Shown here piece by piece: positions 1 through 63,160 of a DNA stretch of 64,000 nt. A program made the position numbers and the translations under genes. The DNA is from an uncultured Gammaproteobacteria bacterium. Its GTDB lineage: Bacteria; Patescibacteriota; Patescibacteriia; UBA9934. Every line of letters starts with the position of its first letter. The stretch's first letter is position 1. Location: contig CAYVLY010000003.1 in NCBI GenBank assembly GCA_964452565.1, positions 22,555 through 86,554 on the forward strand, read 5' to 3'. The notes under the pieces are model-generated. The model made no database searches and had not been told where the DNA came from. It worked only from the letters and a program-made list of their open reading frames with translations.

Positions 1-512
1 AGGGTGTAGATATATTAATCGAGTCATGCGCGCGCCTTACAGATGATGTCGACTGGAATTTGATCATCGTTGGGGATGGTAATCGTCGAGGGGTTTATGA
101 AGAGTTAGCGGAACAGAAACGTATTAAAAACAAAGTTCACTTTGCTGGTCGCCTGAGCCGTGCTGATCTACCGAGATATTATCAAGCAGCTGATGTGCAC
201 GTTTTACCCGCGGTCAATCAGTGTGAGGCATTTGGATTGGTTACACTTGAGGCTGCGGCATCAGGCTTGCCATCGATTGTCTCAAATCTGCCAGGTGTGC
301 GCACACTTGTGAAAGAGCGAGAGACTGGCTTGATCGTTCCTCCATCAGATATCGGCGCTCTAACACTTGCATTAACATTTATGTTGCAAAAAGATGATCT
401 TCGACAAAAGGCTGGTCAAGAAGCTAGGGTTCGGGCAGAACAAAGGTTTGCCCCAGGTGTTATCTATAAACAGTTGAAAGACGTATACAAAAGCGCTACA
501 GTAGGTCGGTGA
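1..512 (+). CDS. Glycosyltransferase family 4 (GT-B fold), C-terminal part; gene runs off the 5' window edge
   Basis: Frame is open from position 3 with no stop (…VDWNLIIVGDG…), continuing into ORF 60..512. C-terminal GT4 hallmarks are present (EAFGLVTLEAAASGLPSIVS). Confidence 0.8.
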   Translation, partial: GVDILIESCARLTDDVDWNLIIVGDGNRRGVYEELAEQKRIKNKVHFAGRLSRADLPRYYQAADVHVLPAVNQCEAFGLVTLEAAASGLPSIVSNLPGVRTLVKERETGLIVPPSDIGALTLALTFMLQKDDLRQKAGQEARVRAEQRFAPGVIYKQLKDVYKSATVGR

Positions 513-513
513 T

Positions 514-1722
514 ATGAAAATAGGCATTATTTCGAATTTGTACCCACCATATCAGCGCGGAGGCGCTGAGTATGTTGTTGTCCGCACTGTCGAGGCGCTA
601 CTTGATCGGTGGCAGGATGTTTTTGTTATCACAGGAAAGCCATTTGCCCAACGTGGCCCACTTGATAGAGATCGCAATGCTGTTGAGCGAGTGTATAGAT
701 TTTCACCGCGTAACATCTATTTCACAATTAATGATTATAAGTTTCCGTGGATTATTAGATTGTTTTGGCACATCATTGACACAGTTTGTTCGTTTGAAAA
801 AGCAAAGGTCGAAAAGGTGTTGCGTAGCGAACAGCCTAGCGTTGTGATGACCCACAACATCAAGGGTCTAGGGCTCCAAATCCCACGATCGCTACAAAAG
901 ATGAACATCCCACATATTCATATCATGCATGATCTGCAGTTGATTTACCCGTCTGGGCTTCTAATCTGGGGAAGAGAGCAGTTTTCATGGATGTTCAAGC
1001 CTGCGTATTCGGCTTATCGATTCTTTACGCGTCGCGCGATTGGTAAGCCAGATCTGGTGATTTTCCCATCAAAGTTTCTAATGGATAAGTATAAGGAGTT
1101 TAGATTTTTCAAAGACACTGAAATGATTGTGATGCCAAATCCCGCACCAGCATTTGACATTCATCCAAAGGACGAGCGACTTGAAGGTCCGCTTAGAATT
1201 TTGTTTGTTGGTCAACTTGAAAAGCACAAGGGGATCAAGCTTTTGATCGACGCATTTAAAAAGCTCAGATTTAAAGCTCTTCTAAACATTGCAGGAGAGG
1301 GAACTGAACGTAAGTATCTTGAGACTCAGGCAAAGGCAAATAAGCCGATTACTGATCTTGGATATGTTTCAGTTGAGCAACTAATCGATTGTTTGAAGTC
1401 GGCTGATGTTCTGGTGGTACCTTCACTTTGCTATGAGAATTCTCCAACTGTGATCTATGAGGCGCTTAGCGCAGGTATGCCTGTGATCGCAGCAGACATT
1501 GGGGGTGTCGGAGAGTTGGTTCAAGATGGGGTAAATGGTTATTTATTCAAACCTGGGGATGTTGATGATCTTGCACAGAAGTTGAGCCTTTTGAATAGTA
1601 AGAAAGAACAGTTTGGCCAGCGCGGAGCGCAGATTAAGACAACGATAGACGAGCATAGTTTGGATAACTATGCGAACAAGTTGATGGGGTTGCTGAATGG
1701 TGTGGTAAAAAAGAAGAAATAG
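514..1722 (+). CDS. Glycosyltransferase family 4
   Basis: 402-aa ORF with a GT4 C-terminal region (PSLCYENSPTVIYEALSAGMPVIAADIGG). It starts 2 nt after the upstream GT4 stop. Confidence 0.8.
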   Translation: MKIGIISNLYPPYQRGGAEYVVVRTVEALLDRWQDVFVITGKPFAQRGPLDRDRNAVERVYRFSPRNIYFTINDYKFPWIIRLFWHIIDTVCSFEKAKVEKVLRSEQPSVVMTHNIKGLGLQIPRSLQKMNIPHIHIMHDLQLIYPSGLLIWGREQFSWMFKPAYSAYRFFTRRAIGKPDLVIFPSKFLMDKYKEFRFFKDTEMIVMPNPAPAFDIHPKDERLEGPLRILFVGQLEKHKGIKLLIDAFKKLRFKALLNIAGEGTERKYLETQAKANKPITDLGYVSVEQLIDCLKSADVLVVPSLCYENSPTVIYEALSAGMPVIAADIGGVGELVQDGVNGYLFKPGDVDDLAQKLSLLNSKKEQFGQRGAQIKTTIDEHSLDNYANKLMGLLNGVVKKKK

Positions 1723-3064: not shown

Positions 3065-3078
3065 CAAGGTTGAACCTC
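3065..3078. repeat. Solo REP-like palindrome tcaaggttgaacct, a partial copy of the 18-bp RAYT-flanking repeat
   Basis: It matches 14 of 18 nt of the inverted repeats at 28715-28732 and 29436-29453. A second palindrome, gaggtttaacctc, follows immediately. Confidence 0.45.
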
Positions 3079-3100
3079 TGAGGTTTAACCTCCTAATTCT

Positions 3101-12544: not shown

Positions 12545-12564
12545 ATAAGAATAACCCCCTCTAT

Positions 12565-12623
12565 CTCCCCCTTCGCAAGGGGGAGGTGTGATAGTTTCGA
12601 TTCCCCTCCTTACGAAGGAGGGG
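12565..12623 (+). repeat. Two tandem related hairpins, ctccccc-ttcgcaa-gggggag and cccctcc-ttacgaa-ggagggg
   Basis: Read directly from the sequence. They are intergenic between rfbC and rfbD. Confidence 0.4.
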
Positions 12624-12655
12624 TTAGAGGAGGTTGTTGCAGTCTATATTCATTT

Positions 12656-24783: not shown

Positions 24784-24859
24784 GCACCGGTAGCTCAGTT
24801 GGTAGAGCGAGGGCCTTTTAAGCCCGAGGTCGCGGGTTCGAGTCCCGCCCGGTGTACCA
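24784..24859 (+). tRNA. tRNA-Lys (anticodon UUU), CCA encoded
   Basis: Manual cloverleaf: 7-bp acceptor stem with one G·U pair, D-loop with GG, anticodon loop CUUUUAA, T-loop TTCGAGT, 76 nt. Confidence 0.85.
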
Positions 24860-28714: not shown

Positions 28715-29453
28715 CCCAAGGTTCAACCTTGAGCAAGAAACCTTTATTTAATGGGGTTGAGCTGATGTGGTAGCCCATACCTTATCCAGTCAAGTAAAAA
28801 TTTGGAGTAGTTATCAAGTGAATTGAATTCATACTTCAAAATATGCTCAGCATTATTTATAGTCGAGAAAATTTTTCGTACATTCGACCATTTATAGTTG
28901 ATGATAAAATTAATAGCGCTGCATATCTTTTTTGTTCCGGATTTCCATTTTGGATTGATAAATTTTAGTGGATTTAGATGGATATAGCGGAATATATGAA
29001 ATAGATACGTATCACTTGTGATGTGTTTTGATTTATACCTAGATTCGAATAGAGCTCCGGATCTTTCATATTTTTTATTGAAGTACATGGTGTATGCGGT
29101 GCCAACCCTCTGCATATACTTCGGAAGCCCATCTTCTGATAGCTGTTCAATGAGTAGGTGGTAGTGATTATCCATTAAACAATAAGCAAGAATTTTAACA
29201 TAGTCATTCCAATCTTTGCTTACTAGGTCTTTAATACAGCCCAGGAACTTCACTCGATCGCGGTCATCAATAAAGATTATTCGCTTATCAACACCACGAT
29301 TATATACATGGAAGTAGCCGAAGTGTTCATTTGATTTTTTCATAAATAAAATTTCCCCACATTAATATTAGATGGGGAGTACATATCTATCACATCATTT
29401 TATTATAAGAAGGTCAATATAGCTTGTTAATACATTCAAGGTTGAACCTTGGG
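28715..29453 (-). mobile_element. REP-associated tyrosine transposase (RAYT) unit bounded by perfect 18-bp inverted repeats CCCAAGGTTCAACCTTGA
   Basis: The inverted repeats at 28715-28732 and 29436-29453 (reverse complement) flank a single HUH/Y1 transposase gene. A partial solo copy sits at 3065-3078. Confidence 0.7.
28744..29343 (-). CDS. IS200/IS605-like Y1 (HUH) transposase of the RAYT type
   Basis: HUH motif DNHYHLLIE and a downstream catalytic Tyr (ESRYKS). Its 199 aa is longer than the IS200 TnpA proteins. Confidence 0.75.
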   Translation of the reverse strand: MKKSNEHFGYFHVYNRGVDKRIIFIDDRDRVKFLGCIKDLVSKDWNDYVKILAYCLMDNHYHLLIEQLSEDGLPKYMQRVGTAYTMYFNKKYERSGALFESRYKSKHITSDTYLFHIFRYIHLNPLKFINPKWKSGTKKICSAINFIINYKWSNVRKIFSTINNAEHILKYEFNSLDNYSKFLLDWIRYGLPHQLNPIK

Positions 29454-43210: not shown

Positions 43211-43305
43211 ACCATCCCGATACGAAGGTGAGGGATCCCGGCTGGCTTAGTGATTATCGGCCAGCCATTGAAAAATACAGCGTTTTCTGTTAGTCTAATC
43301 GACCT

Positions 43306-47938: not shown

Positions 47939-49933
47939 ATGCCAAAGGGGTTAAACTTTTTAGAGGAGCCAGATGCTCTTGGTGGCCCAGAGCCAGATAC
48001 AGAGCCAATGATCTCCTATCAACCACCGAAGATGCCTTTTAAGGTGAAGAAGGTGAGTTTTATTGCAGTCGGAGGCATTCTGCTTGTTGCGTGTCTTTTC
48101 TTTTTGATTAGCATAGGAAGGTTTGTTAATGCTGCTCTCGATGTCCAAGATTCACTTGAGGCGGCACAGGCCTATGCTTTGGAGTTTGAGTTTGAAAGGG
48201 CACAGATTGAAGTAAGGGAGGCTCAAGATTCGCTTGAGATAGCCAAGAGTAGCTTATGGGCTGCCAAGTGGATGTATCCATTGCCATATGTTGGTGATCA
48301 AGTTGAGGCACTGGTTGTGTTGGTCGACACTGGGATAACACTTGCTGGTGTTATGGATGATGCTTTGTCAATTGTTCAAGAGGTGTATTCGTCAGTTTCT
48401 GACATTCAAGATGCACTCGATGATGTTGCTGGGCTTGATAAGGAATATACGTTTGAAACATTGCCAAGTGACGTGCGTGTGGAGATACTTCAGACATTTA
48501 GTAATATTGCACCAGATTTAGCCAAAGCCAGTGTTCAGTTAGATATTGCACAAGAAAAGCTTTCTGAATTGGAGGGTCTGCAGCTTTTAGGTGATATGGA
48601 AGATGTTGTCCTAGAGCTTCAAGAAACATTGCCTAAGATTGCTGCTGCAGTTGAGCTTATTACACCATTTGCGCAGTCGATCGATGAACTTGCAGGGGTG
48701 GATCAGGATAGACAGTGGCTTTTGCTATTTTTGAATAACACAGAGATGCGGCCAGGTGGTGGCTTTATGGGTGTTTATGGATTACTACAGGTACGTGACG
48801 GAGAGATTATTGATATAACAACTGCTGATACTTATTCAATTGATCAATTGGTTGAGAGTGATGAATACGTTGTCGAGCCGCCGTATCCAATCGAGGCCTA
48901 TTTGGGGCTTGATACATGGTACTTCCGTGATGCTAACTGGTACCCAGACTTTGCAGAGTCGTCGAAAACCGCAGTACAACTTTTGCGCCAAGAGTATTCT
49001 TATTCAGGTCAGCCAGTTCCTGAGATCCATGGCGTTATTGGATTCACACCAACTGTTGTCGAGATGTTACTTGAGGTGATCGGCGATGTCACAGTTGATG
49101 GAATCACTTTTACAAGTGAGAATTTCACCGAGACTCTTGAGTATGATGTTGAGTTTGGATTTAAAGAACGTGGAGTTGCATGGGAAGATCGTAAGGCGAT
49201 AATCAACGATCTTGTCGATGAGCTCATGGATCGATTAATGGATGTATCTATTACAGAGCTTCCAGGTTTGATCACAGCCTTTGAGCAGATGTTCACGCAA
49301 AAGCAGATCGGAATGTATAGCTTTGATGCTCAAACCCAGGTTGTGTTTGAAGATGCTGACTGGGCAGGCGTGCTAGATGTTGACGAAACAGATGACTTTT
49401 TGTTGGTAGCTGACGCGAACATGGGTGCTCTGAAGACTGATCACGCAATGGAAAAGGAGATCGTGTATTCAATTATTCCAAGTGATAATGGTTACCAGGC
49501 GCAAGTTGATATCACTTATTATCATCAGGGTGGCTTTGATTGGCGCACAACTCGTTATCTAAGTTACACAAGTATCTTGGCGCCCATTGGTAGTGAGTTG
49601 ATCTCAACAACTGGTGACAATGCATCTGCATATGAAGAGCTTGGAACAATGCGGTTTGGAAGCTATATCTCAATAGAGCCTGGAGAGACTGGCACTCTAT
49701 CATTTGTGTATTCATTGCCAGACTCTGTGAGCGAGGCAATCGAAGATGGGCTTTATGATTTGACCGTTTTCAAGCAAGTAGGTTCTAAACAGGCTGCGTT
49801 GACTCTAGACCTTGATTTTGATAAAAACCTAAGAGCAGCAGAGCCTTCTGAGCTGGAAGACCAGTATGGAGATCAGACATATCACGTTGAGGTTCAGCTA
49901 GATCAGGATTTGGAGTTTATTGTGCAGTTTTAG
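47939..49933 (+). CDS. Membrane-anchored hypothetical protein (N-terminal TM plus large ectodomain; DUF4012-like architecture)
   Basis: 664-aa ORF with TM helix FIAVGGILLVACLFFLISI, sited in a glycan locus. The family assignment is from memory only. Confidence 0.6.
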   Translation: MPKGLNFLEEPDALGGPEPDTEPMISYQPPKMPFKVKKVSFIAVGGILLVACLFFLISIGRFVNAALDVQDSLEAAQAYALEFEFERAQIEVREAQDSLEIAKSSLWAAKWMYPLPYVGDQVEALVVLVDTGITLAGVMDDALSIVQEVYSSVSDIQDALDDVAGLDKEYTFETLPSDVRVEILQTFSNIAPDLAKASVQLDIAQEKLSELEGLQLLGDMEDVVLELQETLPKIAAAVELITPFAQSIDELAGVDQDRQWLLLFLNNTEMRPGGGFMGVYGLLQVRDGEIIDITTADTYSIDQLVESDEYVVEPPYPIEAYLGLDTWYFRDANWYPDFAESSKTAVQLLRQEYSYSGQPVPEIHGVIGFTPTVVEMLLEVIGDVTVDGITFTSENFTETLEYDVEFGFKERGVAWEDRKAIINDLVDELMDRLMDVSITELPGLITAFEQMFTQKQIGMYSFDAQTQVVFEDADWAGVLDVDETDDFLLVADANMGALKTDHAMEKEIVYSIIPSDNGYQAQVDITYYHQGGFDWRTTRYLSYTSILAPIGSELISTTGDNASAYEELGTMRFGSYISIEPGETGTLSFVYSLPDSVSEAIEDGLYDLTVFKQVGSKQAALTLDLDFDKNLRAAEPSELEDQYGDQTYHVEVQLDQDLEFIVQF

Positions 49934-49942
49934 CACTGCACT

Positions 49943-50026
49943 GTGTCACCCCTGCGCAGGCAGGGGTCCATCGAAAAGTCGAGTTCGATATATATCGATG
50001 GATCCCGGCTCAGGGGCCGGGATGAC
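49943..50026 (+). repeat. Three-hairpin GC-rich intergenic element (family X/Y, + orientation)
   Basis: Sequence gtgtcacccctgcgcaggcaggggtccatcgaaaagtcgagttcgatatatatcgatggatcccggctcaggggccgggatgac. It is about 80% identical to the reverse complement of 57094-57175. Confidence 0.6.
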
Positions 50027-50069
50027 GAATGAATTTAGACGGAGGATTGAGGGGGGGAGATACTTACTT

Positions 50070-51074
50070 ATGTTCGAGAAAAAAATTGGAATTGATTTAG
50101 GAACCACCACGGTTTTGGTATATCTGCCGAAGCGTGGAATTATTATCAATGAGCCATCTGTGGTAGCGGTATCCAAGGCAGACAGAAAAGTTTTGGCAGT
50201 TGGAAAAGAGGCAAAGGACATGCTTGGGCGCACCCCGGATACAATTGTTGCTCAACGTCCACTTAAGGATGGGGTGATTGCTGACTATAAAACCACAGAG
50301 GCAATGCTTCGATATTTCATCAATAAGTCTCTTGGAGGAATGCGGATTTTGCGTCCTGAAGTAATGGTTGCGGTTCCTGGTGGGATCACCTCAACTGAAA
50401 GACGTGCAGTTATTGATGCAGCACTCTCTGCTGGAGCAAAAGCTGCTTATATTATCCGTCAACCAATCGTTGCAGCCATAGGTGCGAGTATCCCAATCGG
50501 AAGTCCATCAGGTCACATGGTAGTTGAGATTGGTGGGGGAACCACTGAGGTTGCAGTTATCTCGCTTGGGGGGATTGTTGCATCTGACTCTGTCAGAATT
50601 GGGGGAGTTAAGTTTGATCAGGCGATCATGGAACATATTCGCAAGAAGTACAACCTTGCCGTTGGTGAACGAACTGCAGAGGAAATTAAGATTCGAGTTG
50701 GTTCCGCAATGTACTTGGAGGACAAACTTGAGATGGAAGTTAAGGGCCGAGATATGATAACTGGACTTCCAAAAATCATGATCGTGACCTCGGATGATGT
50801 CACAGAAGCTATCCAACCGCTCTTAGAAGGGATCCTAGAGGCAATTAAAGAGGTGTTGTATAAAACACCACCTGAGCTCTCCGCTGATGTGATGGACAAA
50901 GGAATCGTGATTTCTGGTGGAAGTTCACAGCTGCGGAACTTTGATCGGCTCATTGCAGAGGCGACTGGAGTGCCTACTTATTTGGCAGAAGAGTCACAAC
51001 TTTGTGTTGCAAAGGGAACAGGAATTGCACTTGATAATCTTGACGCTTACAAGCGTAGCGTCTTCACTGGCTAG
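50070..51074 (+). CDS. mreB: Rod-shape-determining actin homologue MreB
   Basis: KIGIDLGTTTVLVY phosphate-1 motif, plus VEIGGGTTEVAVIS and ISGGSSQL. Confidence 0.85.
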   Translation: MFEKKIGIDLGTTTVLVYLPKRGIIINEPSVVAVSKADRKVLAVGKEAKDMLGRTPDTIVAQRPLKDGVIADYKTTEAMLRYFINKSLGGMRILRPEVMVAVPGGITSTERRAVIDAALSAGAKAAYIIRQPIVAAIGASIPIGSPSGHMVVEIGGGTTEVAVISLGGIVASDSVRIGGVKFDQAIMEHIRKKYNLAVGERTAEEIKIRVGSAMYLEDKLEMEVKGRDMITGLPKIMIVTSDDVTEAIQPLLEGILEAIKEVLYKTPPELSADVMDKGIVISGGSSQLRNFDRLIAEATGVPTYLAEESQLCVAKGTGIALDNLDAYKRSVFTG

Positions 51075-53295: not shown

Positions 53296-53389
53296 CGCTG
53301 TTCACAAGTTTACTTATGAACACTGCGTGTTGGCAGAGCACAGTACTAGGTACTGGCCCTGCCTGTGAGACGGGGGAAGGGACGGGGGA

Positions 53390-54343
53390 CTAGGCCGCAG
53401 CCGAGTGCTTGCGATCGAGCTCAGCGATCCGGTTGTGGAACAGCTTCTCGAGCTCGCGCTGCTGGGCTTCGAGTTCCTCGATCGCCCTGGGCGGGATGGG
53501 GAGTTCCTCATCGAGACGGTGCTGGATCATCTTTTCGAGATCACCCTCTGAGGTGCCCAGCCAGGGCATCCGGTGCTTGTCCTCGACGTGCCGGTTGGTG
53601 TAGGGCATGTAGCTGGCCCACCTCGGGCCGCGGTAGTTCCGTTCTGCGCCGCGACGGGCGCGCGGCCTGTGGCCGTGGAGCCGTGCCACATGGCAGTCCT
53701 TGGACACGTGACGGCTCTTGCGAGCCTGGTGGGGCTCGGCCGCGATACGCTCGGCCTCGAGATGAGCGGCATAGCGGGCGATGGCATCGGCATACTCGAC
53801 CTCGTAGTCGATATCGCCTTCGATCATGTCTCCTCTGTACACCCTGACCATGTCTCCTGCCAGCCAGATCAGGTGCTCTTGCGCGAGCTGGACCCGACGC
53901 TCTTCGTTTTCTCCGATCCAGTTCTCCATGTCGTCCCAGACCTCATCTTCGTCGTACTCGTCGAGCTCGTATTCCTCGTCGTCCAAGGCCTCGCGGCCGA
54001 AGTCGAAGTGCTCGATGAGGACCTGGTCAGTGGAGGGGTCGACGCGATCGGGGTGGAAGGGGTCAGCCATCTGGACGTGCATGTCGTACAAGTCCATGTG
54101 GTTGTTCATGGCTACCTCGCCGAAGTTGGGCGAGGTTCCGAAGCTGCGCACTCCATTCTCGTTGGTGACCCACCAGGCCGGCTTGCGGCCGGTGATCTGG
54201 TTTTTCTCGTCTGCCCACCGCTCGAGCTCCTGGGCCCGACCTTCTGCGATGATCTGCTGCCGCTGTCGTTCACCTTCCAGATCCAGGGTCATGACGACGT
54301 TTGGGACTGGCAGGTGTCGAACTTCTGATGCTGCTGTTGCCAT
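53390..54343 (-). CDS. GC-rich hypothetical protein (cassette G6, 317 aa, acidic D/E-rich segment)
   Basis: Long ORF in a GC-rich island, with AAGGAG 9 nt before the ATG. All other frames show shadow ORFs only. Confidence 0.5.
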   Translation of the reverse strand: MATAASEVRHLPVPNVVMTLDLEGERQRQQIIAEGRAQELERWADEKNQITGRKPAWWVTNENGVRSFGTSPNFGEVAMNNHMDLYDMHVQMADPFHPDRVDPSTDQVLIEHFDFGREALDDEEYELDEYDEDEVWDDMENWIGENEERRVQLAQEHLIWLAGDMVRVYRGDMIEGDIDYEVEYADAIARYAAHLEAERIAAEPHQARKSRHVSKDCHVARLHGHRPRARRGAERNYRGPRWASYMPYTNRHVEDKHRMPWLGTSEGDLEKMIQHRLDEELPIPPRAIEELEAQQRELEKLFHNRIAELDRKHSAAA

Positions 54344-54895
54344 TTCCGATATCTCCTTCGGTGTGGCTTCTGGTGGAAAGAAAACCCCGGGATGGGGCGT
54401 CTATTTGTGGTGGTTTCCCACAGCAATCTGGAGGTGATGTGGTGCTCTGAGACAGGCTCAGAACATGTGCCCAGCTAGGCTGGGCTCATAGGGTAGTGAC
54501 TCCCGAAGGAATATATCCCGAGAATGTTCGGGTATGTACTAGGAGTTAGCCGAAGCCAAGTCTTAGAACTTGAACATTCAATCCTCCTGAGGCTTTGTAA
54601 TTTCAGAAGAAATTCATCAACCTCCAGGTTGCTGTAGAAAACGCCTCAGATGTGATCTCCTAATCACATCCAAAGCGTTTTTTTTGTTCTCTCTCAAATT
54701 GTTGTCATCCTGAACGAAGTGAAGGATCCACTCAAGTAGATTCTTCGCTACGCTCAGAATGACAGGTGACATAGCCACTCAGAGCACACAAGTGAACTTG
54801 TATTCTCTGCGCGACCCGCATACAGGCGATCTTGAGACAAGGCTCGTGATCGGTGATCCTGCATGCGAGACGGAAGGGGGTGAAGGGGCGGCGGA

Positions 54896-55612
54896 CTAGC
54901 GGGGCGCCTGGCTGAGCTCGCGGATGCTGGCCGTCAGACCGCCATCCTGGGCCTGGGCGACCTTGCGGGTGGGGGTCAGCCGCTGGAAGTCCAGGTCGCT
55001 CTCCTTGCCACCGACCTTCGCAGGCAGGGCAGCGGAGAACTTGCGGATCTGGGCGAACACCTCATCGGTGAGGATGCCCAGCGCCACGAAGCACTCACCG
55101 ACCTCGCGGTAGCTCCGGCGCACACCCAGCTTCTTGCTCTGGGCGATGGCGTAGAGCGTGTTCGCCGCGGCCTGCTTGTTGCTGGTCAGGACGACCTTCC
55201 CGGCCTTCTGGTCCATCGCGTAGGTGTAGGGGCACTTGCCGCTGTGCTGCCACTTGTCGCCCCTCTTGAACCGCCGGTAGGTGCCGGCCTTGGATGCGGC
55301 ATCCAGGATGGCCTTGCAGGCTTGGTTCTGGTGCGAGAGGAAGACGGCCACATCGTAGCGGGCCTTGGCAGCCAGGCCAGCCTTGTCACCTGCGTCGTGC
55401 ATCTTCTTGAGGCACAGCTGCTCGGCGACCAGGCGCGCGGGCTCGAGCTCCTGTACCATCTGCTCCATTGCCGCCTCGTCACTCTTGACCAGGTTGGCGA
55501 TGGCCAGTAGGGCGCGCTTCAGCTGCTTCTCGGCCTCGGTCAGCTCATCCCACTTTTTGTAGATGAAGAGGGTGTCCTGGCGGGGCTGCGTGTTCTTGGT
55601 TGCTTCGGCCAT
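54896..55612 (-). CDS. GC-rich hypothetical protein (cassette G7, 239 aa from MAEATKNT)
   Basis: AAGGAG RBS 7 nt before ATG 55612 and a consensus promoter about 150 nt upstream. Confidence 0.5.
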   Translation of the reverse strand: MAEATKNTQPRQDTLFIYKKWDELTEAEKQLKRALLAIANLVKSDEAAMEQMVQELEPARLVAEQLCLKKMHDAGDKAGLAAKARYDVAVFLSHQNQACKAILDAASKAGTYRRFKRGDKWQHSGKCPYTYAMDQKAGKVVLTSNKQAAANTLYAIAQSKKLGVRRSYREVGECFVALGILTDEVFAQIRKFSAALPAKVGGKESDLDFQRLTPTRKVAQAQDGGLTASIRELSQAPR

Positions 55613-55763
55613 GATGGCACTCCTTGTTCTGGCTGGGTGACCCCTCGACCTCCTTGGTCGGGTGGTCGGGGGTTGGATGGAAGCCCCGGGGGTGGGGCAT
55701 GCTTGGGGAAACAAGTGAAGGGAACGCATTTATATTGGCTTTCTGGCCAAATGCGAACGTTGT

Positions 55764-55792
55764 AATATAGCACAAAAAAGCGGTTTTGTCAA
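55764..55792 (-). promoter_or_regulatory. Consensus promoter on the - strand: TTGACA-aaaccgcttttttgtgc-TATATT
   Basis: -35 at 55792-55787 and -10 at 55769-55764, with a 17-nt spacer. Confidence 0.5.
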
Positions 55793-55856
55793 GAGCAAAC
55801 CATGGATTTGGGGCCAAAGTTAGTAAAAAAAATTGTAAAGCTCTGAGTGATCAGTT

Positions 55857-56158: not shown

Positions 56159-57082
56159 ATGAATCCCTCGTTTGAGAGCATTATTGGCCATAAAAAGCAG
56201 TGTGATTATCTAAAGCATGTCCTAGAGTCTGGAAATGTCGCACATGCTTATTGTTTTTCTGGTTCAAAAGGATTGGGCAAGGCAACGATTGCAAAGGAGT
56301 TTGCTGAGCGATTATTAAGTCTAGAGACTGACAAACTTCAAACTTCACCAAATGTAACAATCGTAAGTGATGAGAATGGGAAGATCGGAGTTGAAGAGAT
56401 CCGAGCGCTCAAGCAGACCTTGTCACTTTCTACTTTTGGTGGAGGCTGGAAGATTGCAATTATCAACGGCGCTGATTCAATGACAACCTCTGCGCAGAAT
56501 GCCTTACTAAAAACATTGGAAGAACCAACACCTCAGACTGTTTTGATCCTCATCTCTCATAACTCAGATGCACTTTTGGAAACCATTCGTTCGCGCGTTG
56601 CGACTATTGAATTCAATCTTTTGCCAGTTGATCAAATAGTTGATGCCCTTGAAGATAGGTTTGGAGTAAAAAAACAAAAAGCACAGCTTATTGCGCAGCT
56701 TAGTATGGGTAGAGCAGGAGTTGCATTTGTTTGTTCTGACGAAGAGAACTGTAAGGAGCAAGAAGAAAAGGCACAGGAGGCTCTTCAGTTTTTGCAAGAC
56801 CCACTTTACGAGCGAATGCGTAAGATTGAGTTGATCACAAAAACCAAAGAAGATCGTCAACGAGTGATCCAAAACATGGTAGAATTATGGAGAATGTGGC
56901 TGCATGAAGGTTTGCTGTACTCTTTGGGTATGAGCTCTGCTGATCAGGTTAAAGATCTAGCAGGACAAAGCTCAGGTACTCAGATCAAGAAAGCACTCTC
57001 AACTCTTCATGAATGTGAGCGTGCACTGGATCGCAATGTTCAACCAGCACTTGCCCTACAAGTGTTTGCGTCGAGTTTTTAA
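56159..57082 (+). CDS. holB: DNA polymerase III delta' subunit (AAA+ clamp-loader)
   Basis: HAYCFSGSKGLGKATIAKEFAERLL Walker-A-like region and the SRV-like SRVATIEF. The ORF-track start at 56015 lies in a GC-rich non-coding-looking leader; the Met at 56159 directly follows TGGTACAAT. Confidence 0.75.
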   Translation: MNPSFESIIGHKKQCDYLKHVLESGNVAHAYCFSGSKGLGKATIAKEFAERLLSLETDKLQTSPNVTIVSDENGKIGVEEIRALKQTLSLSTFGGGWKIAIINGADSMTTSAQNALLKTLEEPTPQTVLILISHNSDALLETIRSRVATIEFNLLPVDQIVDALEDRFGVKKQKAQLIAQLSMGRAGVAFVCSDEENCKEQEEKAQEALQFLQDPLYERMRKIELITKTKEDRQRVIQNMVELWRMWLHEGLLYSLGMSSADQVKDLAGQSSGTQIKKALSTLHECERALDRNVQPALALQVFASSF

Positions 57083-57093
57083 ACAACTAATCT

Positions 57094-57175
57094 GTCATCC
57101 CGGCCGTAGAGCCGGGATCCATCGAAAATCAATTTCGATAAGTGATGGACCCCCGATCGGGGTCGGGGGTGACAC
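57094..57175 (-). repeat. Three-hairpin GC-rich intergenic element (family X/Y, - orientation)
   Basis: It is the reverse complement of the element at 49943-50026 and lies between the holB stop and the lipoprotein start. Confidence 0.6.
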
Positions 57176-57186
57176 ATAATGAGAAT

Positions 57187-58242
57187 ATGAAAAAATATAC
57201 ATCTTTAAGCCTTTTGGCTCTGTCCTTGGTACTTGTTGGTAATAGTTGCCTTTCATCAAGCTCAACATCTAGCACTGGCGGTGTTTGGCAAACACAGGAC
57301 AGTGGACAAAACTGGACTCAACTGGCAGCGCTTCCTCAGGCAGGCGGAGTCGGATCTATTGCTGGAGTAAATGTAACAGTTATTGAGATTGATCCCTCAG
57401 ATGCTACTGTTTACTATCTTGGAACTGATGGAAATGGAGTGTTTGTCTCATATGACGCTGGAAGCACATGGCAGCGACCAGATGCAAGCGCCCTTGCAAC
57501 TGGATCGATTGTTGATATTGAAGTTCACCCAAGTGATGTTTGTACGATCTATATTGCATATCCTGACACAGTTTTGAAGACTACTGACTGCATGCGAAGT
57601 GTTGATGATATTTATGAAGTAGATCAGTCAGACGAGTATGTGACAACTTTTGATATTGATTGGTACAGTCCAGACAATCTTTGGCTTGGTAACGAGCAAG
57701 GAGCAGTTATTAAGTCAGCAGATGCTGGAGGAACTTGGTCAACTATTTATCGTGTAAATGATGATATTACTGATTTAGAAATCAGTAAGGCAGATAGTCG
57801 GATTATCCTTGTGGCAACTGACCGCAGGGGCCTGTATCGATCTGAAGACAGTGGATCAAGCTGGACTGAGTATGAGGATGAGCTAAGGAAAGAGTTCAAG
57901 AGTTCAGATGAGGTTTATGGTTTTACTCAAACCGAAGATGGAACGTCTGTGATTATGAATACTGAATATGGATTACTGATTTCCATTGACATGGGTGAGA
58001 CATGGGATGCTTTGTCATTGCTTACAGAAGAGGGTGAAGTCCGAGTTTGGGATGTTGCATTTGCACCTCACAATGCGAGCGATATTTACTACACAACCTC
58101 ATCAACTTTTTACAGCACAAGCACTGGAGGTCAGTCATGGGTAACTGAAGATTTACCGTCTGGCAGAACACCTTACATTGTGCGCGTAAATCCAGATGAT
58201 ATGGATAGGGTTTTGGTAGGATTTAGAGCATTGGACAACTAG
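57187..58242 (+). CDS. Lipoprotein with BNR/Asp-box (SxDxGxTW) beta-propeller repeats
   Basis: Lipobox LVGNSC, and Asp-box repeats SYDAGSTW, SADAGGTW, SEDSGSSW, SIDMGETW and STGGQSW. Confidence 0.65.
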   Translation: MKKYTSLSLLALSLVLVGNSCLSSSSTSSTGGVWQTQDSGQNWTQLAALPQAGGVGSIAGVNVTVIEIDPSDATVYYLGTDGNGVFVSYDAGSTWQRPDASALATGSIVDIEVHPSDVCTIYIAYPDTVLKTTDCMRSVDDIYEVDQSDEYVTTFDIDWYSPDNLWLGNEQGAVIKSADAGGTWSTIYRVNDDITDLEISKADSRIILVATDRRGLYRSEDSGSSWTEYEDELRKEFKSSDEVYGFTQTEDGTSVIMNTEYGLLISIDMGETWDALSLLTEEGEVRVWDVAFAPHNASDIYYTTSSTFYSTSTGGQSWVTEDLPSGRTPYIVRVNPDDMDRVLVGFRALDN

Positions 58243-63142: not shown

Positions 63143-63160
63143 AAATACTAACATTAGGCA

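Follow-up and report, generated by a model that had tools for sequence, protein, structure and literature searches.

The 64,000-nt window that we analysed carries two copies of a compact palindromic element, each lodged between two plus-strand genes. Element 1 (49944..50027, plus strand) occupies a 136-nt gap between a DUF4012 gene and mreB, beginning 10 nt past the stop codon of the DUF4012 gene and leaving 42 nt to the mreB ATG. Element 2 (57093..57174, assigned to the minus strand) sits between a DNA_pol3_delta2 (holB-like) gene and the gene for a BNR/Sortilin-type lipoprotein. The 104-nt gap there consists of 10 nt after the holB-like stop, the 82-nt element and 12 nt to the lipoprotein ATG. 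Both elements are intergenic between co-directional genes, and each starts exactly 10 nt past a stop codon. A sequence-only reading had placed three-hairpin elements at 49943-50026 and 57094-57175, upstream of mreB and of the BNR lipoprotein gene, and we find both in that setting with boundaries within 1 to 2 nt of those positions.

Its estimate of about 80% identity after reverse-complementing one copy also holds, as a MAFFT alignment gives a mean column identity of 82%, flanks included. Copy 1 and reverse-complemented copy 2 have four exact blocks in common: TGTGTCACCCC, GGGGTCCATC, TCGATGGATCCCGGCTC and GGCCGGGATGAC. A 15-mer (TCGATGGATCCCGGC) and an 11-mer (GCCGGGATGAC) match exactly at the two element sites and nowhere else in the 64-kb window. 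When mismatches were tolerated for the same two words, the observed match count was reached by none of 100 shuffles.

The claim that the two copies lie in opposite orientation survives in part. The flanking hairpin types are indeed swapped, with the AC and AT stem types on opposite sides in the two copies, which led to the earlier reading. However, the copies align at 63 of 86 positions (73%) both directly and after reverse complementation. Their orientation is ambiguous, each element being 65 to 68% identical to its own reverse complement. For the spacers, alignment in the same orientation is clearly the better one (score 10 versus 2, with 0 of 2000 shuffles reaching 10).

Note that the public gene calls begin inside the elements (49998-50069 and 57145-57186). 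MreB is called there at 358 amino acids instead of 334, extending 24 codons into the element, and the lipoprotein at 365 instead of 351 (14 more). An exact look-up of the true MreB consequently found no match.

Anatomy of the elements and other repeats in the window

Each element has the same order of parts: a tag, an 8-bp stem-loop, a CCA tail, a spacer, a TGG tail, a second 8-bp stem-loop and the reverse-complemented tag. Element 1 opens with the outer tag TGTC, a variant of CGTC (49944..49947, plus strand), which pairs with 50024-50027 in the four-way-junction fold and belongs to the covarying outer stem. The first REP hairpin follows (49948..49967, plus strand), with an 8-bp stem ACCCCTGC/GCAGGGGT and the loop GCAG. 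Next come the CCA tail, a 28-nt AT-rich spacer with complementary ends TCGA...TCGA and the TGG tail (49968..50001, plus strand). The second REP hairpin (50002..50023, minus strand) has an 8-bp stem ATCCCGGC/GCCGGGAT and a 6-nt loop. The hairpins and the tail-spacer segment are seen in both sequence and fold; the closing tag, identified from the sequence, is CGTC read on the minus strand (GACG on the plus strand; 50024..50027). The middle hairpin of the element, TCCATCGA/TCGATGGA, is built from the two tails and the spacer ends.

Element 2 runs from a TGTC tag (57093-96) through a REP with the stem ATCCCGGC..GCCGGGAT (57097-118), CCA (57119-21), a 24-nt spacer (57122-45) and TGG (57146-48) to a second REP, ACCCCCGA..TCGGGGGT (57149-70), and the tag GACA (TGTC on the minus strand; 57171-74). 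Three of the four tags in the two elements read TGTC and one reads CGTC; all face outward, and paired with each other they form the outer stem of the fold. All four stems are 8 bp long and open with A-T; two begin with AT and two with AC, the latter having C-G instead of T-A at the second stem pair. Each element thus combines one AC stem (ACCCC..GGGGT) with one AT stem (ATCCCGGC..GCCGGGAT). The tail is CCA in four of four REPs, and both spacers are AT-rich with complementary ends of the TCGA..TCGA type. One loop has 4 nt (GCAG) and three have 6 nt, two of which RNAfold shortens to 4 nt via a ninth pair (one G-U, one G-C).

A third head-to-head REP dimer in the window, with TGTC tags, belongs to another stem family (54703..54764, no strand assigned). 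It was identified by a regex match and its sequence and scores a weak 9.9 bits with our covariance model, R1. Its stems, ATCCTGAAC.. and ATTCTGAGC.. (ATCCTGAACGAAGTGAAGGAT and ATTCTGAGCGTAGCGAAGAAT), each contain a tandem G.A mismatch, are separated by a 9-nt spacer and differ from each other by compensatory changes. The surrounding stretch, at about 53300-55800 between the TrmB-like and holB-like genes, has 52 to 57% GC within a 43% GC window and two minus-strand ORFs without a Pfam match (53390-54343 and 54896-55729). Relatives carry different genes there, and the stretch may be an acquired island.

Two further repeats were observed. Another GC-rich double-hairpin repeat (CTCCCCCTTCGCAAGGGGGAG ... 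CCCCTCCTTACGAAGGAGGGG) lies at 12555-12633. Its family also occurs in a relative (contig L129, 9011-9126), in the space between the genes for prolyl-tRNA synthetase and peptidase M16; the corresponding gap in the window is only 13 nt. At 43216-43270, a degenerate REP-like hairpin (ATCCCGATACGAAGGTGAGGGAT) is followed by a GGCTGGC..GCCAGCC hairpin, and in the same relative a module resembling it makes up the spacer of a decayed REP dimer (L129 1398-1529, R1 22 bits). We rejected the near-match at 43228 as a dimer, since it is at most a degenerate REP-like hairpin, and weak R1 matches at 63154, 19998 and L127:3301 are ordinary terminator hairpins.

Fold, covariation and the wider family

The two elements fold in the manner first suggested for them, and they do so on both strands. 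Each strand of each copy, as RNA or DNA, forms an outer 4-bp stem and three hairpins, in a perfect four-way junction with the closing stem GUCA/UGAC and no unpaired junction bases. RNA minimum free energies range from −43 to −48 kcal/mol (z −4.3 to −6.2), and none of 200 shuffles was equally stable; the sense strands have −47.7 (copy 1) and −43.3 kcal/mol (copy 2).

Further copies elsewhere had been set as a test of a mobile or REP-like reading, and the same architecture occurs in large numbers in other genomes. We searched with a family pattern made up of the junction bases only (GGGGTCCATC, 15 to 45 nt, GATGGATCCC), which gave at least 117 loci in species-representative genomes and one match in viral contigs, of the same architecture. 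Among the matches listed, stable hairpins were present on both sides in 83 of the 116 that were testable, and the remaining testable ones were coding-sequence coincidences or longer-arm variants. One pattern scan of reference genomes yielded more than 90 elements with this architecture among the matches listed. Most come from Alphaproteobacteria, including Sphingomonadales, Devosia, Bosea and Algimonas, and a single Elusimicrobia chromosome of 2.7 Mb carries many. The window copies belong to a very widespread family.

An alignment of 79 elements gives the consensus CGTCACCCCGGCGnAnGCCGGGGTCCATC...GATGGATCCCGGCCTnCGCCGGGATGACG, with all conserved bases in stems and variation in the loops and spacer. 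R1 is the covariance model built on this alignment. It scores element 1 at 68.7 bits (E 7e-15) and element 2 at 62.0 bits (E 3e-13), each as a complete head-to-head dimer of CGTC-type REPs, although both window copies are among the 79 sequences of the seed. On the loci from Alphaproteobacteria and the Elusimicrobia genome, R1 finds several copies per 8 kb, each matched on both strands.

The covariation support that was sought for the structure is present in these 79 aligned elements. Standard pairs make up 94.3% of the 1966 cells of the four-way-junction structure, and 122 cells are changed on both sides, compared with 35.8 in shuffles. The structure has a covariation score of 0.197, and sliding the partners gives no more than 0.063. 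Because the bases of the search pattern are fixed and cannot vary, this signal comes from the outer tag stem (variants CG/UA/GC, GC/CG/UA and others) and from inner stem positions (GC 53, CG 14, UA 6; GC 44, CG 31). At the most variable stem position, local hairpin pairing is kept in 73 of 79 elements and arm-to-arm pairing in 53 of 79, so that the conserved units are the individual hairpins. The partial arm-to-arm pairing preferred by RNAalifold on the MAFFT alignment was rejected, as 20 of the 79 elements, including both window copies, work with local hairpins only. We thus show that the local hairpins are under selection. Furthermore, the two loops of most alphaproteobacterial copies are mutually reverse-complementary (GAAG and CTTC), which points to DNA-level symmetry.

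This architecture is that of the CGTC-tagged REPs, a super-family reported by Di Nocera, De Gregorio and Rocco (2013, BMC Genomics 14:522; PMC3733652). According to that survey, a REP of this type carries the tag CGTC at one end outside the stem, with TGTC and CCTC as accepted variants. The stem has 8 to 9 bp and its first two positions are almost always complementary A/T residues; the loop has 4 to 5 nt, with exceptions in some species; and the untagged end bears a 3-nt tail with the consensus CCA. The survey describes mostly head-to-head dimers, both homo- and heterodimers, with the tags outside and spacers of 20 to 100 bp, some with complementary ends. They lie mostly between co-directional or convergent ORFs, near the 3' end of the upstream ORF. 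No associated transposase is described there; the mobilising enzyme was left as an open question in 2013, and frozen relics were offered as an alternative. Families of tens to thousands of units per genome are reported, from Proteobacteria, Chlorobi, Bacteroidetes, Spirochaetes and Thermotogae.

The window copies agree with this definition in tag, stem, tail, dimer and spacer, location and the lack of a flanking transposase; of their loops, one has 4 nt and three have 6 nt. Judged by the family's textual description, they closely resemble CGTC-1 and can be called CGTC-1-like, and the alphaproteobacterial consensus (8-bp stem, 4-nt loop) fits that family. We consider it highly probable that both elements are head-to-head CGTC-tagged REP heterodimers, that is, a small, non-coding, non-autonomous repeat that entered intergenic spacers of this Patescibacteria lineage. 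The three-hairpin elements are an already described kind and not a new RNA; what is new is the small Patescibacteria genome that hosts them, where they seem to have inserted recently. In the literature collection searched we found no paper that links REPs to Patescibacteria, and a full-text search with the element's sequence strings matched nothing but primers containing BamHI sites. The known hosts of CGTC-tagged REPs are hereby extended to Patescibacteria and to a genome of the Elusimicrobia.

These repeats can also mislead annotation elsewhere. In L120, an unrelated contig from soil, the N-terminus MDPGLRRDDE of a 195-aa ORF (64-651, minus strand) is a translated CGTC REP. This is an example of a spurious annotation ORF seeded by such repeats. 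In the window, too, the elements mislead gene callers, and they coincide with metagenome assembly breaks.

Empty sites and alternative explanations

The closest MreB proteins, at 88 to 90% identity, are labelled Candidatus Uhrbacteria or Patescibacteria, and the DUF4012 gene and gene order fit a Patescibacteria (Uhrbacteria-like) host. Syntenic contigs of relatives allow the filled sites of the window to be compared with their orthologues. The gap from the DUF4012 gene to mreB is 4 nt in L124 (GCA_018664485.1), and in L121 it holds 97 nt of an unrelated repeat. The gap from the holB-like stop to the lipoprotein ATG is about 11 to 14 nt in L121, 11 nt in L129, L130 and L131 (lipoprotein 82% identical) and 10 nt in L132 (84% identical). 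The filling in L121 (9902-10000) consists of CCGATCT and CCCCAAT units, the reverse of GGGGATT-type heptamers, and the DUF4012-mreB site seems to accept various small repeats. Scanning about 74 kb of relatives' sequence (overlapping contigs counted) with R1 gave no clear copy and one degenerate 22-bit relative, in L129. The roughly 73.5 kb of source-genome sequence analysed contain two dimers of this type (four REPs) and one dimer of another family (two REPs); R1 found no copy in the 9.5 kb beyond the window.

Given the empty orthologous sites in the sampled relatives, the copies look like lineage-specific insertions. The simplest reading of these gene gaps is a lineage-specific gain of both copies, and absence could in principle also result from repeated loss. 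Judged by the same gaps, the elements are shown to be dispensable in close relatives. Clean filled and empty sites among close relatives bear on whether a transposase-less family still spreads.

Contigs of the same organism from SRR8146440 (Logan L127, L126 and L119) end at window positions 12579, 43229, 54731 and 57096, all at palindromic repeats; another contig stops within an ORF rather than at a repeat (63507). Assembly breaks at repeats are suggestive of more near-identical copies of these palindromes in the sample. A metagenome scan for sister copies in the source lineage, with a spacer-specific pattern, returned one unrelated high-GC contig only.

The elements could instead be kept mainly for the benefit of the host, through an RNA-level 3' hairpin block giving a more stable upstream mRNA or less read-through into mreB or the lipoprotein gene, with spread being secondary. 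The position of both copies between co-directional genes, 10 nt past the upstream stop, and their very stable sense-strand folds speak for such a block, and the survey takes position and G-T pairs as grounds for an RNA-level action of many REPs (PMC3733652). However, sampled relatives with the same gene order do without the element, and no U-tract follows it. Folding is equally good on both strands, which is what DNA-level palindromy predicts, and the reverse-complementary GAAG/CTTC loops of most alphaproteobacterial copies again indicate symmetry at the DNA level. We therefore regard this explanation as unlikely, if the most serious of those that compete with the repeat.

A DNA-level role, as a cruciform or a binding site for gyrase, a nucleoid protein or a polymerase in the manner of E. 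coli BIME/REP clusters, appears improbable. Speaking for it are the perfect four-way junction without unpaired junction bases, the junction sequences conserved across phyla and the known role of this kind in E. coli REPs, which the survey cites (PMC3733652). Yet junction invariance is partly ascertainment, since those bases were fixed by the search pattern; two to three copies per 70 kb are too sparse for a general role in supercoiling, and the sites in relatives are empty. The data can be accounted for without a host-selected function at the RNA or DNA level.

The suggestion of 'a MITE' or 'terminator' in the sequence-only reading gives way to its REP-like alternative. We think it very improbable that a DDE transposase recognising terminal inverted repeats moves these elements as classical MITEs, despite their short, non-coding form, the inverted ends GTCA..TGAC and the presence/absence polymorphism. 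They do not qualify as such because they lack target-site duplications: the ends of 66 to 72 elements show no excess of 2- to 4-nt direct repeats, and a 2-nt match occurs in 5 of 72, against 4.6 expected. The arms are self-folding hairpins with independent compensatory changes rather than simple inverted repeats, and no transposase gene adjoins the copies in 0.9 Mb of loci. Nor are they canonical intrinsic terminators, because no U-tract follows either copy; a search for a GC-rich hairpin with a U-tract found no such site in 49700-50300 or 56900-57400.

An orientation-dependent cis-regulatory RNA (riboswitch or leader) or small RNA gene is barely credible despite the stable, covariation-supported structure upstream of genes, as the element matches R1 on both strands, confines its conserved bases to stems while loops and spacer vary, lies beside unrelated genes in unrelated phyla and is absent from orthologous leaders; Rfam 15 gathering and permissive scans gave no gathering-score match and local noise at E>0.5 only, and ARAGORN made no tRNA or tmRNA call at the elements in spite of their cloverleaf-like fold, its one call being a tRNA-Lys at 24784. 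The preference for a mobile or REP-like palindrome over a riboswitch was thus well founded, given the agreement with the CGTC-tagged REP definition, the lack of an Rfam match and the relatives' empty sites.

Mobilisation and comparison with known systems

The window encodes a RAYT-like Y1/HUH transposase of 199 amino acids (28744-29343, minus strand; Pfam Y1_Tnp 35.7 bits, above cut-off). It has the motifs HYH and YIHLNP and scores 46 bits with the NCBIfam model 'REP-associated tyrosine transposase', below the cut-off of 80. The gene lies in the lowest-GC part of the window (38%). Within the unit at 28715-29453, perfect inverted repeats of 18 nt, palindromic in themselves (CAAGGTTSAACCTTG; CCCAAGGTTCAACCTTGA), flank the gene on both sides. 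Two tandem copies of the small palindrome that flanks it, AGGTTNAACCT, lie at 3067-3091 between convergent ORFs; this palindrome occurs four times in the window, compared with 0.07 expected. The unit is a REPtron/TIRtron-like arrangement whose palindrome is unrelated in sequence to the CGTC REPs.

This nearest Y1 transposase is about 20.6 kb from the elements and is not flanked by CGTC REPs. The window thus matches the published pattern, in which a tyrosine transposase is present yet lacks flanking CGTC units. At 28744-29343 we found no cognate RAYT gene flanked by the same REP, the arrangement that defines a REPIN-RAYT pair, and the GTAG tetranucleotide at which RAYTs cleave is absent from the REP 5' ends, where the tags are TGTC or CGTC. 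The RAYT-like protein gave nothing better than E=4 in a tblastn search against all fetched loci and no meaningful match in a PDB sequence search.

By analogy with RAYTs and GTAG REPs (PMC3733652), we propose a HUH/RAYT-like copying mechanism in which a trans-acting enzyme would work on the hairpins in single-stranded DNA. Insertion takes place without target duplication, and the sites entered would be intergenic, 10 nt past stop codons. As each copy lies between genes of the same direction, both would be transcribed with the upstream gene and would fold into three stable hairpins. As a side effect, these might form an orientation-independent 3' barrier that slows exonucleases and partly uncouples the two genes. 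The elements are probably not dedicated regulators of mreB or of the lipoprotein gene.

There is a slim chance that CGTC-type dimers are still mobile in this ~1-Mb Patescibacteria lineage and are copied in trans by the RAYT-like protein at 28744-29343. If that protein does copy them, the 'missing' transposase of the CGTC super-family would be identified, and mobility here would argue against the survey's frozen-relic alternative. A very small genome with fresh copies and a single RAYT-like gene in 64 kb is a convenient place to seek the mobilising enzyme. The biological value of our findings is modest, with a small chance of helping to find that enzyme.

Among known systems, the CGTC-1 dimers of the survey (e.g., of Sphingomonas wittichii) are closest. 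They share with the window copies the CGTC/TGTC outer tag, the 8-bp GC-rich stem opening with A-T and the CCA tail. Outward tags, a 20- to 100-bp spacer with complementary ends and heterodimers are also common to both, as is a position just past the upstream stop between co-directional genes without an adjacent transposase. The window copies differ in that three of four loops have 6 nt rather than 4 to 5, the spacer is AT-rich and one REP per dimer has AC rather than AT at stem positions 1 and 2. Their host, a member of the Patescibacteria, lies outside the five phyla listed there. The survey also assigns Rickettsia RPE-4/RPE-6 and Neisseria dRS3 to the CGTC type (PMC3733652); they belong to the same super-family by tag, stem and tail and likewise occur in small genomes. 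Unlike the intergenic, solitary window copies, they are often intragenic or clustered.

The REPINs mobilised by RAYTs (Bertels and Rainey 2011; GTAG REPs of Pseudomonas and E. coli) resemble the window elements in having two inverted REP hairpins and a spacer in about 80 to 110 nt, no target-site duplication, presence/absence polymorphism and a Y1/HUH RAYT-like gene in the same genome. However, the tag here is CGTC/TGTC and not GTAG, the RAYT-like gene is flanked by the unrelated palindrome CAAGGTTSAACCTTG, and the arms differ from each other, so that conservation lies in the local hairpins and not in a single long one. E. coli REP/BIME elements are likewise extragenic palindromes in alternating orientation, transcribed 3' of genes, with mRNA stabilisation and DNA-level protein targets as their proposed roles. 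They belong to another sequence family with another tag, and BIMEs number in the hundreds and have defined protein partners, which goes beyond anything shown for the window elements.
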